IMG/VR virus record: IMGVR_UViG_2728369607_000007 | Coordinates: 1-50,260 of that record | Reading direction: 5' to 3' (one strand) | DNA length: 50,260 bases | Origin: a virus | Lineage: Duplodnaviria > Heunggongvirae > Uroviricota > Caudoviricetes | In this document: positions 1,865 through 5,009 of the stretch, in pieces | Layout: every line of letters begins with the position of its first letter | Numbering within the stretch: position 1 is the stretch's first letter | The notes under the pieces: generated by a model | The model's input: only the letters and a program-made list of their open reading frames with translations | Told to the model about the DNA's origin: nothing | Database searches by the model: none | Program-made: the position numbers and the translations under genes

Positions 1865-2110
1865 ATGTCAGAAATTACATCCCTGGTCACTGCTGAAGCA
1901 GTGAAGGAAGTCCTGCGCTCTGAAGAAGTCCGGAGCGCACTGAAACAGAAACTTCGCCATAACCTGGAAGCGCGTCTTGATGCAGAAGTGGATGCCATTC
2001 TGGATGAACTGCTGGGCGCACCGGCAGCTCCGGAGCCGGAAGGCATCGCGGGTGAGGGGAGTGCTTCAGATAGCGGTGACCCCACACCTGACAGCGACAT
2101 GATGATGTAA
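1865..2110 (+). CDS. Hypothetical acidic protein (81 aa)
   Basis: Internal ATG of ORF 1691..2110; acidic C-terminus; sits between esterase and holin. Confidence 0.4.
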
Positions 2111-2187
2111 GCATTCGTCAGGGACCATCGGTGTGTGCCGGTGGTCTTTTTTATTGTTGTGAGCTTCCGGATTGCGGGAGACGGGGT

Positions 2188-2403
2188 ATGTACCAGATGG
2201 AAAAAATCACAACAGGTGTGTCATACACCACGTCAGCGGTGGGAACGGGCTACTGGTTCCTGCAGTTGCTGGACAGGGTTTCCCCGTCTCAGTGGGCGGC
2301 AATAGGCGTGCTGGGGAGTCTGCTGTTTGGGCTGCTGACATATCTGACGAACCTGTATTTCAAGATTAAAGAAGACCGTCGTAAGGCGGCGCGGGGAGAG
2401 TAG
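2188..2403 (+). CDS. S: Phage holin (S21/Stx-phage type, class II), with dual-start motif M-Y-Q-M
   Basis: Protein [26 protein letters not shown]...[15 protein letters not shown] matches lambdoid S21-like holins; RBS GGGAG upstream; followed by lysis genes. Confidence 0.85.
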
Positions 2404-2406
2404 ACG

Positions 2407-3198
2407 ATGAATAAACAATACGAACTGGTTGTTAAAGGGATAAATATTTACCCGGATAAGATTACTGTTACTGTGGCGCTGGAAACTGGTGGGTATACGT
2501 CACTGTTGTTGCCAAATGTGGTGATTGATCTTGATCGTGTTGAAGGTGCCCCGCTGGAGTTTTACGAAGCTGAGGCGAAAAAGAAGGCGAAGCAGTTTTT
2601 CATGGATATTGCTGCCGGGTTATGTGAAGGGAACGAACCGTTGCCGGAAAAGCGCCTCTGTTCAGAAGAGCGGTATACCATACAAATTAACAATGCATAT
2701 AACACGATACAGTCAGAAAAAGATGATATCGAATCACGCATTGAAAAACTGGAGAACAGCGTCGTTGAACTGAATAAAAAACTGTCGGTGCAGATCCCTT
2801 CCGAAGGTGAAAAAAAACGCCGTGATGAGCAGTTCGCGGCGTTTTACGATTATTGCCGGAAAGTGATGAGCAGAAATCTCGCAGAGTGTTTCCGTATTCA
2901 AAAAAACAGAGAGCGCTCTGCAAATAGTGAGATTCTGGATAATTTTTTAAAGGGGACGCATCTCGCCAGTGATTGTTTCATTGCTCATTCTTTTGGTGGC
3001 TTTCATGAGGCCATCAAACATGATGTTGAGAGAAGTCCAGGTATCCTCTGTTCCATTCCCGTAAGCATCGAAATAGACACAAATACGATAACCGGTGAAC
3101 TCGTTACCGCCGGAGTCGGTATATTCCGTCATGAGGGGAACGATGCCAAAGGTTCCTTTACAAAAATCGGGCCGTTCTTTCTGAAGGTAGAGCGATAG
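2407..3198 (+). CDS. Hypothetical cargo protein (263 aa) with central coiled-coil segment, inserted between holin and endolysin
   Basis: ATG 4 nt after holin stop with RBS GGAGAG; AT-rich; no family recognised; 3-prime 252 nt overlap the convergent ORF below. Confidence 0.5.
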   Translation: MNKQYELVVKGINIYPDKITVTVALETGGYTSLLLPNVVIDLDRVEGAPLEFYEAEAKKKAKQFFMDIAAGLCEGNEPLPEKRLCSEERYTIQINNAYNTIQSEKDDIESRIEKLENSVVELNKKLSVQIPSEGEKKRRDEQFAAFYDYCRKVMSRNLAECFRIQKNRERSANSEILDNFLKGTHLASDCFIAHSFGGFHEAIKHDVERSPGILCSIPVSIEIDTNTITGELVTAGVGIFRHEGNDAKGSFTKIGPFFLKVER

Positions 3199-3579
3199 TT
3201 TGTTAAGTACCCATCCGACAGCTCGCTCATTTTGGTTTATTTTCGTATCGCGAAACAAAAATTCGAAGCGGCCAGATGACGCATGGGTGCAACCAAATAC
3301 CGGGGCGTATTCATCAACCTTTGGTGTTCCTGAAAACATGCAGTCCGTGCTCTCGAATGCAGATGAATTGCTGTTGATCCACTTAACAAAAGAAAAAAAG
3401 GTCTGAATCGCTTGTCTGTCTGAATATTCAACAAAATCCTCAAGGTGTGTCTCGATCAGTTCCGGGTGTTTACGAAAGTCATAATATTGACCGGGACGAT
3501 ATTTATGAGTGGTTGTTTTATCCCATGGTTGTGCTCTGCGTCCCTGTAAACGGAGGTCTGCCGCTGGATAGATAAGCAT
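2947..3579 (-). CDS. Hypothetical cargo protein (210 aa), antisense to the late operon
   Basis: Internal ATG at 3579 preceded by GGAG RBS (7-nt spacing); diverse composition; no family recognised. Confidence 0.5.
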   Translation of the reverse strand: MLIYPAADLRLQGRRAQPWDKTTTHKYRPGQYYDFRKHPELIETHLEDFVEYSDRQAIQTFFSFVKWINSNSSAFESTDCMFSGTPKVDEYAPVFGCTHASSGRFEFLFRDTKINQNERAVGWVLNKLSLYLQKERPDFCKGTFGIVPLMTEYTDSGGNEFTGYRICVYFDAYGNGTEDTWTSLNIMFDGLMKATKRMSNETITGEMRPL

Positions 3580-3709
3580 AAGTAATCTCCTGGTGGAATG
3601 TAATCCACGATCATCCGGGGAAATTAAGAACCCGCCAGTGCCCACCACTGGTGGGGTGAAGGCTTAACATATCCAGGGATTCGGAACCGATAAATCCTGA
3701 TAAATATCC

Positions 3710-4243
3710 ATGAACACCAAAATCAAATACGGCCTGTCGGCTGCCGTTCTGGCGCTGATTGCCGCAGGGGCGCCTGCGCCTGATATTCTCGACCAGTTTC
3801 TGGATGAAAAAGAAGGTAACCACACCACGGCATACCGTGATGGTGCGGGGATCTGGACCATTTGTCGTGGTGCCACCAGGGTGGATGGCAAACCTGTCGT
3901 CCCGGGCATGAAGTTGTCGAAGAAAAAATGCGACCAGGTTAACGCCATTGAGCGTGATAAGGCGCTGGCATGGGTGGAGAAAAACATCCGGGTGCCACTG
4001 ACTGAACCCCAGAAAGCGGGGATCGCGTCATTCTGCCCGTATAACATTGGCCCCGGTAAGTGTTTCCCGTCGACGTTTTATAAACGAATTAATGCAGGCG
4101 ATCGCAGGGGAGCGTGTGAAGCGATTCGCTGGTGGATTAAGGACGGTGGCAGAGACTGCCGTATCCGCTCAAATAATTGCTATGGTCAGGTATCCCGTCG
4201 TGACCAGGAGAGCGCGCTGGCGTGCTGGGGTATCGACAGATAA
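3710..4243 (+). CDS. R: SAR endolysin (phage 21 R-type lysozyme, GH24)
   Basis: N-terminal signal-anchor-release segment GLSAAVLALIAAGAPA; E...D...T catalytic triad spacing (EGNHTTAYRDGAGIWT); strong similarity to R21-type lysozymes. Confidence 0.9.
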   Translation: MNTKIKYGLSAAVLALIAAGAPAPDILDQFLDEKEGNHTTAYRDGAGIWTICRGATRVDGKPVVPGMKLSKKKCDQVNAIERDKALAWVEKNIRVPLTEPQKAGIASFCPYNIGPGKCFPSTFYKRINAGDRRGACEAIRWWIKDGGRDCRIRSNNCYGQVSRRDQESALACWGIDR

Positions 4244-4333
4244 GCAGAATATTTTGCTGAAAAATGACGTTGGCCAACGCGGACGGATAACACGAAATCC
4301 TGCGAACTGGCAAAACCTAAGTGAATAAAAGTA

Positions 4334-4366
4334 AAAACCCCGTTTGTTAGCAGCAGGTGGGGTTTT
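4334..4366. terminator. Hairpin AAAACCCC-N16-GGGGTTTT with flanking A/T runs (possible bidirectional intrinsic terminator)
   Basis: Perfect 8-bp inverted repeat followed by TTTTG on plus and A-run on the other side. Confidence 0.4.
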
Positions 4367-4441
4367 GTGTTTCCTGACTCCGGAAAAGTCAAAGGAGAAA
4401 GTGTGTTTGATTTTAGCAAACTGATTCGGGAGATTTGAGTG

Positions 4442-4540
4442 ATGGCTGAAAAATTATCTACCTGGAAGTTCATTCTTATCTGGCTGGTGTTTGTGATTAT
4501 GGTCTCCGGTTATTTCATCGGTCAGATACGCTGGTGGTGA
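4442..4540 (+). CDS. Small hydrophobic peptide (32 aa) between endolysin and spanin genes
   Basis: ATG with GGGAG RBS 8 nt upstream; [32 protein letters not shown]; stop 1 nt before Rz start. Confidence 0.3.
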
Positions 4541-4541
4541 A

Positions 4542-5009
4542 ATGAACCGCGTTCTGTGTGTGGTCATCATTGCCCTGCTGGTGGCCTGTGGTGCGCTTAG
4601 TCTGGGGCTGAATCATTACCGTGATAACGCCATCACCTACAAAGCGCAGCGCGATAAAAAAGCCAGAGAGCTGGAGCTGGCAAACGCAACCATTACTGAT
4701 ATGCAGGTGCGCCAGCGCGATGTTGCTGCGCTCGATGCAAAATACTCAAGGGAATTAGCTGATGCGAGAGCTGAAAATGAAACTCTGCGTGCTGATGTTG
4801 CCGCTGGTCGTAAGCGCCTGCGGATCAACGCCACCTGCCCCGGTACCGTGCGTGAAGCCACCGGCACCTCCGGCGTGGATAATGCAAGCGGCCCCCGACT
4901 GGCAGACACCGCTGAACGGGATTATTTCATCCTCAGAGAACGGTTGATGACAATGCAGAAGCAGCTGGAAGGGGCACAGGACTATATCCGCACTCAGTGC
5001 CTGAACTAA
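4542..5009 (+). CDS. Rz: Inner-membrane spanin Rz
   Basis: Strong similarity to lambda Rz (…[16 protein letters not shown]…[24 protein letters not shown]). Confidence 0.85.
4762..4947 (+). CDS. Rz1: Outer-membrane lipoprotein spanin Rz1, embedded in +1 frame of Rz
   Basis: Lipobox LVVSAC, proline-rich mature region, fully embedded in Rz as in lambda. Confidence 0.75.

Follow-up and report, generated by a model that had tools for sequence, protein, structure and literature searches.

Morons of lambdoid phages, as defined by Hendrix and colleagues, are exemplified by lambda bor and lom and by HK97 gene 15. A second point of reference for the present work is ydfR, a gene of the DUF1327 family, which lies between holin and endolysin in lambdoid prophages such as the Qin prophage of Escherichia coli K-12. 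Here, we analyzed the window, a stretch of 50,260 nucleotides (nt) that spans positions 1 to 50,260 of the IMG/VR virus record IMGVR_UViG_2728369607_000007 and begins in the late region of a Shiga toxin (Stx)-type lambdoid prophage of E. coli. Between its holin and endolysin genes are two convergent open reading frames (ORFs), one of 263 amino acids (aa) on the plus strand and one of 210 aa on the minus strand. Our analysis indicates, with a probability of about 0.8, that positions 2904-3703 form a putatively autonomous moron cassette that replaced the 3' end of the resident ydfR, that the plus ORF is a chimera and that the minus ORF is the cargo gene. What is new under this reading is a moron that has escaped annotation, whose product belongs to an uncharacterised family and whose presence has made a chimeric pseudogene of the adjacent ydfR.

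Cassette limits and the resident ydfR gene

The limits of the cassette were set by comparison with L141, an intact locus in which holin, ydfR (287 aa) and endolysin lie on one strand, with 36 nt between ydfR and the endolysin gene R. Window positions 2148-2903 are 98.5% identical to L141 positions 962-1717, and window positions 3704-4300 are 93.8% identical to L141 positions 2115-2711. Between these two blocks, the 800 bp at 2904-3703 stand in place of 397 bp of L141, which comprise the last 367 nt of ydfR and a spacer of 30 nt. Read on the minus strand, the 800 bp contain an upstream element, a leader, the 210-aa gene and a terminator-like hairpin, and their edge falls 6 nt short of the endolysin start codon. 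The G+C content of the cassette is 0.451, compared with 0.537 in the surrounding 12 kb. The whole gap between holin and endolysin measures 1306 bp and has a G+C content of 0.43-0.49 versus 0.53-0.56 in the flanks; the region 2400-3715 is 100% identical to the Stx1a-converting phage Stx1_499.

The plus ORF (2407-3198, 263 aa) starts at an ATG 3 nt past the TAG of the holin gene, with GGGGAGAG just before it. Its residues 1-96 match Pfam PF07041 (DUF1327) at an E-value of 7.5e-34 (116.3 bits against a cut-off of 25), and residues 1-168 match phrog_2091. A search of 5.8 billion proteins returned 178 relatives of about 145 to 333 aa, nearly all of which contain PF07041 and many of which are named YdfR or DUF1327. 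Alignment of YdfR proteins (alignment A8) revealed two natural C-terminal forms, a short one ending in TRRNFVKAFEESKSLQ and a long one (287-333 aa) in which RKVMSRNLAECFSIH is followed by a conserved domain of about 120 aa. As far as NLAECF (residue 164-165), the window protein tracks the long form; beyond this point it diverges, and agreement with the intact 287-aa YdfR consequently stops at codon 165 instead of extending over the full length. The native part of the gene therefore covers codons 1-165 (2407-2903, plus strand), with the DUF1327 domain at aa 1-96 followed by a long helical stretch that ends in FAAFYDYCRKVMSRNLAECF. Codons 166-263 (2904-3198, plus strand) are a read-through tail, antisense to the cassette and not genuinely coding, as supported by the end of homology, the substitution pattern, the structure prediction and the RefSeq annotation by the Prokaryotic Genome Annotation Pipeline (PGAP), which calls window-type ydfR a DUF1327 pseudogene 'missing C-terminus'. 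Because the cassette replaced the ydfR 3' end, the plus ORF is a chimera of 165 native and 98 read-through codons. Judged by its sequence, it is an ordinary resident ydfR/DUF1327 gene rather than inserted cargo. A literature search on DUF1327 and ydfR yielded nothing on function and no paper that pairs ydfR with a holin.

These results confirm the initial annotation of this locus in its ORF coordinates and lengths, its GGAG ribosome-binding site, its 252-bp overlap and its 1.3 kb of AT-rich DNA between holin and endolysin. It had assumed that holin and endolysin are normally adjacent, whereas the intact arrangement in this lineage is holin-ydfR-endolysin, and it had regarded both ORFs as inserted genes without a recognisable family. 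Both statements are true of the minus ORF, which is AT-rich inserted cargo without a Pfam, NCBIfam, PHROG or PADLOC model, but not of the plus ORF, a DUF1327 gene already resident at this position. By homology the plus ORF is an ordinary conserved lysis-accessory gene, which the initial annotation had named as the outcome that would speak against its view; the minus ORF is not such a gene.

YdfR proteins are modular in alignment A8. The conserved DUF1327 domain is followed by two optional inserts, one of about 14 aa and a helical one of about 30 aa, and by a conserved KKRRDEQFAAFYDYC motif, after which comes either a short tail or the domain of about 120 aa; recombination breakpoints fall at this motif. 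In the draft-derived IMG/VR copies L018, L036 and L032, insertions or deletions in homopolymers at 2809-2816 (eight A) and 2900-2906 (seven A) break the plus ORF. Such changes fit the status of ydfR as a pseudogene, but sequencing error is possible.

The cargo gene, its protein family and its possible functions

The open frame on the minus strand spans 2947-3648 and would encode 233 aa if translation began at a GTG. For the 210-aa product (2947-3579), the start is the ATG at 3579, and a GGAG ribosome-binding site (3587-3590, minus strand) lies 7 nt upstream of it. The 210-aa protein has a mass of 24.3 kDa and an acidic pI of 5.8, is hydrophilic and contains no hydrophobic or membrane segment. 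The exact protein is present in public collections as a 'hypothetical protein' (UniRef A0AAN3H6X0). A word-indexed search found six clusters, which include full-length proteins of 210-219 aa, with identities of 64-65% to Salmonella homologues and 53-54% to metagenomic ones. With full-length homologues of matching length, the minus ORF is well outside what chance would produce. A profile search of 1.84 billion representatives then gave 251 family members at E<=1e-3, 183 of them at E<=1e-10, so that the family amounts to about 250 clusters at 50% identity, nearly all of whose members are 200-220 aa long. Across 104 members, R15, P18, P39, I42, L46, E47, D48, F61, N69, E76, D79, R104, R110, N115, G163 and G174 are at least 90% conserved; R15, E47, D48, E76, D79, R104, R110 and N115 make up a near-invariant charged set, joined by E106 and R165 in the closer relatives. 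AlphaFold2 predicted the protein with a mean predicted local distance difference test (pLDDT) score of 95.0 and a predicted template modelling (pTM) score of 0.91, and the model consists of an N-terminal hairpin, three helices and a beta-beta-alpha-beta-beta-alpha core. Taken together with the selection analysis below, the minus ORF is a genuine gene that encodes a soluble alpha+beta protein under purifying selection.

No described family accounts for this protein. Pfam, NCBIfam, PHROGs and PADLOC gave no match to it and nothing common among the 104 relatives; in PADLOC-DB 2.0, no family reached E<=1 for the 210-aa protein, and the relatives produced only scattered single matches at E>=0.008. 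PDB sequence profiles gave nothing below E=0.38, and Foldseek searches with the model reached template modelling (TM) scores of at most 0.3 against the PDB and below 0.46 against viral models. The C-terminal domain of class III aminotransferases, TYW3/UPF0130, YbjN/AmyR and Pcc1 were considered as kin and rejected, as they offered generic fold likeness with low TM-scores and no sequence similarity.

The family extends well beyond phages. A scan of GTDB with the alignment of close relatives gave no match; a distant subfamily is present in no fewer than 128 GTDB species, most of them Nitrospira, Myxococcota or Acidobacteriota, and the phage-borne subfamily shares only about 25-35% identity with the chromosomal ones. 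At 80 distant loci, the homologues are solitary genes among housekeeping and regulatory genes and not in defence islands. Synteny was found within Nitrospira only, with thpR-cinA convergent downstream at 17 of the 80 loci and recA-recX-alaS divergent upstream at 8, and no conserved partner gene was seen at those of the 80 loci outside Nitrospira. In Nitrospira loci that include L065, L067, L068, L069 and L072, the homologue is antisense inside the cinA-thpR/recA-recX-alaS cluster and divergent from recA. This context may hint at a link to the DNA- or RNA-damage response. The solitary chromosomal setting as a whole argues against a defence-island gene and speaks for a cellular role, as an enzyme or ligand binder, acquired by enterobacterial phages. 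An effector of the type III secretion system was also considered and rejected as unlikely, in view of the conserved, structured N-terminus and the occurrence in Nitrospira, Myxococcota and Acidobacteriota, which to our knowledge are not known for such effectors.

The near-invariant charged residues make an enzyme or a protein that binds a small ligand or nucleotide likelier than a structural or membrane factor, as far as sequence conservation can suggest. We tentatively consider it possible that the 210-aa protein is of a cellular type, derived from a chromosome, and that it acts as an enzyme or ligand binder in fitness or stress, helping the lysogen in the gut in a way unrelated to phage. Family members are widely distributed as solitary genes with a stable place on the chromosome, the charged set is nearly invariant, and the protein is soluble and predicted to be compact and confidently folded. 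Moreover, metabolic or stress cargo lies nearby, with nanS-p (52-1509) in the window prophage and sodC in a Salmonella prophage remnant. Cargo such as the nanS-p esterase and sodC of related prophages is considered to raise lysogen fitness in the gut. However, no catalytic motif or fold match names a reaction, no conserved neighbour gene suggests a pathway, and the low identity between the phage and chromosomal subfamilies also counts against this function.

It is somewhat unlikely, in our judgement, that the protein is instead a new single-gene anti-phage defence or superinfection-exclusion factor expressed in the lysogen. The cassette opposes the late operon and occupies cargo positions of prophages, and its distribution in E. 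coli is patchy (132 of 5426 complete genomes). One Salmonella prophage, the P22-like L006, has the homologue in the same Q-to-holin cargo region as the Kiwa defence genes KwaA and KwaB (L006 11618-13257). PMC7067206 describes morons as often being accessory genes expressed in the lysogen, with phage-resistance functions included in the class, and this too speaks for defence. Against it, PADLOC is without a match for the protein or its 104 relatives, the protein lacks a membrane segment and any recognisable effector or sensor domain, and the distant relatives in at least 128 species are solitary chromosomal genes, syntenic in Nitrospira, that lie outside defence islands. The defence, exclusion or toxin-like role proposed in the initial annotation thus gained no support from the PADLOC searches or from the genomic setting of the relatives. 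Its view that the antisense placement is typical of cargo expressed in lysogens agrees better with our data, as the minus gene faces against the late operon, and the phage copies show the classic signature of a lysogen-benefit gene.

What probability the cellular and defence functions leave over goes to another function or to none. A bolder version, in which the 210-aa protein founds a new single-gene system, anti-phage or similar, protecting the lysogen, has a fold absent among solved structures and travels on a promoter-leader-cargo cassette of about 800 bp that moves among late-operon sites of enterobacterial prophages and has swappable cargo, DUF1823 in PhiR12_1 being an example, seems distinctly unlikely to us.

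Overlap, transcription signals and insertion sites

The two ORFs overlap at 2947-3198 (252 bp). Here, the plus ORF reads the antisense of the minus gene in codon register. In this frame, stops can arise only where the sense strand has TTA, CTA or TCA, and the plus-ORF stop is the reverse complement of minus codon 128 (CTA), the last such codon in the minus gene. The same antisense opening of 83 codons is present in tail-operon homologues without any upstream gene feeding into it, and it is interrupted by three stops in the Salmonella copy L003. The ratio of nonsynonymous to synonymous substitution rates (dN/dS) was calculated between the window and six homologues. In the overlap, it was 0.13-0.34 for the minus frame (dS being estimable in five of the six comparisons) and 0.55-1.03 for the plus frame, the latter indistinguishable from the 0.68-1.18 of the antisense frame outside the overlap. 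Purifying selection was thus found in the minus frame only. In addition, AlphaFold2 modelling of the plus ORF with 26 YdfR sequences gave a pLDDT of 70-91 for the DUF1327 domain and 26-45 for residues 142-263. On these sequence comparisons, codons 166-263 of the plus ORF are best described as a shadow ORF of the minus gene. The overlap, which the initial annotation had presented as an arrangement of two genes, is a by-product of the replacement of the ydfR 3' end by the 800-bp cassette.

That both ORFs are functional and the 252 bp truly dual-coding is very improbable. The plus ORF is open over 263 codons, variants of 305 and 161 aa with an identical tail occur in many genomes, and GenBank records of Stx phages annotate the plus ORF and not the minus gene. 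However, the variants are other ydfR alleles joined to a virtually identical cassette (at least 99% identity), which accounts for the identical tail. The plus-frame dN/dS at the antisense background, the recurrence of the same opening in cassettes between the tail genes I and J without an upstream ORF, the three stops in L003, the poorly predicted tail and the homopolymer insertions and deletions in several draft-derived copies all count against a second coding function.

A candidate promoter element (3666-3702, minus strand) consists of TATCAGGAT at 3694-3702, a spacing of about 22 nt and a -10-like TATGTT at 3666-3671. The combination of TATCAGGAT and TATGTT, 22-24 nt apart, is conserved within the roughly 110-125 nt upstream of the ATG in the holin-endolysin and I-J cassettes and partly, as aligned, in the E. 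coli locus L054. Within the putative 5' leader is the inverted repeat CCAGTG-N5-CACTGG (3635-3651, minus strand), which may represent a conserved RNA structure or serve as an operator; in the Salmonella copies L003 and L006, hairpins of different sequence appear, by eye, at the matching leader position. Rfam gave no match on window positions 2000-4600. In the I-J cassettes L009, L038 and L048, a palindrome CTGAT-N5-ATCAG lies over TATCAGGAT, where the window instead has a direct GATAAAT repeat (3684-3703). A LexA box was rejected for this palindrome, as its spacing is CTG-N9-CAG and not N10, and its likeness to a Fur box is too weak to claim. At the other end, GCAGAG-CGCT-CTCTGT followed by seven T (2899-2921, minus strand) forms a terminator-like hairpin 26 nt past the stop codon. 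Read on the plus strand, this hairpin is not followed by a T-run and should therefore not terminate late transcription.

We propose that the cassette would be transcribed from its own conserved upstream element at 3666-3702, through a hairpin leader of 85 nt, to an end at the hairpin and U7 of 2899-2921. It would be expressed in this way from an otherwise silent prophage, and Q-antiterminated late transcription would presumably still pass the cassette and reach R and Rz.

The cassette is found at several positions of the late operon. In IMG/VR, 36 loci carry the cargo gene, and 20 of these are E. coli copies of 99-100% identity. At no fewer than 11 loci of a group with 50-56% identity, the gene is antisense between the tail genes I and J of lambda-like prophages; in one of these prophages, L041, a homologous cassette of 786 bp stands in place of 15 bp between I and J of Enterobacter phage LAU1, which itself lacks the cassette and is 93.6-95% identical to the L041 flanks. 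In the P22-like Salmonella prophage L006, the homologue is antisense directly upstream of the holin gene, in the cargo region between Q and holin, and a second Salmonella lineage has it in a prophage remnant beside sodC. The E. coli locus L054 carries a ydfR fragment and an internally deleted cassette copy upstream of a lysis cassette of a different type, and two further loci have the homologue next to tape-measure-like genes. Wherever the late-operon context of a prophage was examined, the cargo gene ran antisense to its late-gene neighbours.

The upstream part of the cassette also occurs with other cargo. In phage PhiR12_1, two blocks correspond to window positions 2149-2856 and 3634-4300, and between them lies a 303-bp segment with an antisense gene for an 86-aa DUF1823 protein. 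The promoter-leader segment of about 70 nt at 3634-3703 (L010 3254-3323), which contains the conserved element and the leader hairpin, is present in PhiR12_1 and is therefore common to two different cargos. About 750 further complete E. coli genomes match fragments of the query only, namely this upstream segment (68 nt) or the 47 nt of ydfR at the left end of the query, and many thus have the upstream segment but not the 210-aa gene. On this pattern of sequence matches, 3634-3703 resembles a shared upstream module behind which cargo can be exchanged.

The idea that the cassette acts mainly as RNA, with convergent or antisense transcription over ydfR near the R start tuning the timing of lysis and the protein secondary, could draw on the cassette ending 6 nt from the endolysin start codon, on its transcript being antisense to late mRNA and on the different cargo behind the same 70-nt segment in PhiR12_1, but it is hardly credible for a protein under clear purifying selection with a confident fold, in a cassette that also sits in tail operons, where lysis timing is irrelevant, and that contains no known Rfam family.

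Several observations weigh against our reading of the locus. The hairpin at 2899-2921 is short and folds no better than shuffled sequence, and a scan with the sigma-70 consensus called no promoter at 3580-3709. The low pLDDT found for the plus-ORF tail carries little weight, as this tail lacks alignment depth. Selection on the plus tail was judged against distant homologues only, since the cassette is at least 99% identical in all E. coli copies and dN/dS among them is not computable. Moreover, the cargo gene is frameshifted in about 10-15% of the E. coli copies among the sampled loci, and selection to keep it is therefore not absolute. In a minority of copies, a 1-nt deletion in a run of seven T (3393-3399, minus strand; codons for TFFS) cuts the gene to 113 aa; it recurs in the independent copies L002, L036, L037 and L055, and copies with it include the complete genomes CP045209 and CP027640 (the latter with the 113-aa product P0022). 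This deletion could be decay, phase variation or assembly error.

Carriers, neighbouring genes and relation to known systems

The cassette occurs at 99% identity or more in the 132 complete E. coli genomes mentioned above, and many of the listed carriers are O145, O111:H8, O103:H2, O113:H21, O91 and O22:H8 strains from cattle and people. Eight deposited Stx1a or Stx2a phages contain it. In the three of their records that were inspected, the plus ORF alone is annotated, and the minus gene is unannotated in the RefSeq loci inspected. Gene-calling programs favour the longer shadow ORF or report ydfR as a pseudogene, and the antisense moron stays hidden behind the chimeric ORF. A conserved and, by prediction, well-folded protein, encoded on Stx1a and Stx2a phages and in complete genomes of which many of those listed belong to Shiga toxin-producing E. 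coli serotypes, has thus been missed in the records inspected. As a single-gene cassette of 800 bp, apparently with its own regulatory parts, it is a small and clean target for screens of lysogenic conversion or defence. Should its function prove mundane, the locus would represent an ordinary moron and a correction of the annotation.

The surrounding genes are those of a lambdoid late region. Upstream lie a SASA-family (nanS-p type) esterase gene (52-1509), a DUF1378 gene (1645-1824), a DUF826 gene (1865-2110) and the class II (phage 21 type) holin gene S (2188-2403, plus strand; 71 aa; PF04971, 6.8e-33), which has a MYQMEK dual start and whose identical copy is labelled 'class II holin family protein' by PGAP. 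Downstream, on the plus strand, are the gene R for a 177-aa endolysin of the signal-arrest-release (SAR) type (3710-4243; PF00959, 7.3e-25; phrog_7, 7e-63), whose N-terminus is hydrophobic and SAR-like, the spanin gene Rz (4542-5009; PF03245, 2.2e-50) and, embedded in it, the Rz1 lipoprotein ORF (4762-4947) from the ORF list; terminase follows Rz/Rz1 in the gene order. A second variable site is the spacer between endolysin and Rz (4244-4541), which in the window measures about 300 bp and contains a terminator-like hairpin (4334-4366); in the related prophages L001, L002 and L012 it holds an antirepressor gene or two small ORFs.

Compared with long-form YdfR, the plus ORF has kept the position of its intact counterparts, just downstream of a P21-type holin, but it lacks the C-terminal domain of about 122 aa and carries 98 unrelated read-through codons instead. 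A close parallel to the altered locus is PhiR12_1, whose DUF1823 gene, like the cargo gene of the window, lies between a truncated ydfR and R, is antisense and overlaps the ydfR 3' end. The two have the 70-nt promoter-leader at 3634-3703 in common, within a stretch of 98.8% identity, and differ in what follows it, an 86-aa DUF1823 cargo in a 303-bp segment in PhiR12_1 versus 777 bp in the window.

Among described elements, the cassette most resembles the morons of lambdoid phages. Like them, it is extra DNA between genes that are adjacent in a related phage and deviates in base composition; it comes with an upstream element of its own and ends in a terminator-like sequence, it is placed and oriented in a way that would fit expression from the prophage, and it is found at several late-operon positions. 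Unlike Bor, Lom and gp15, which are outer- or inner-membrane proteins, its cargo protein is soluble, cytoplasmic and of no described family. Furthermore, where morons slip between genes, the window cassette deleted the 3' third of the resident gene.

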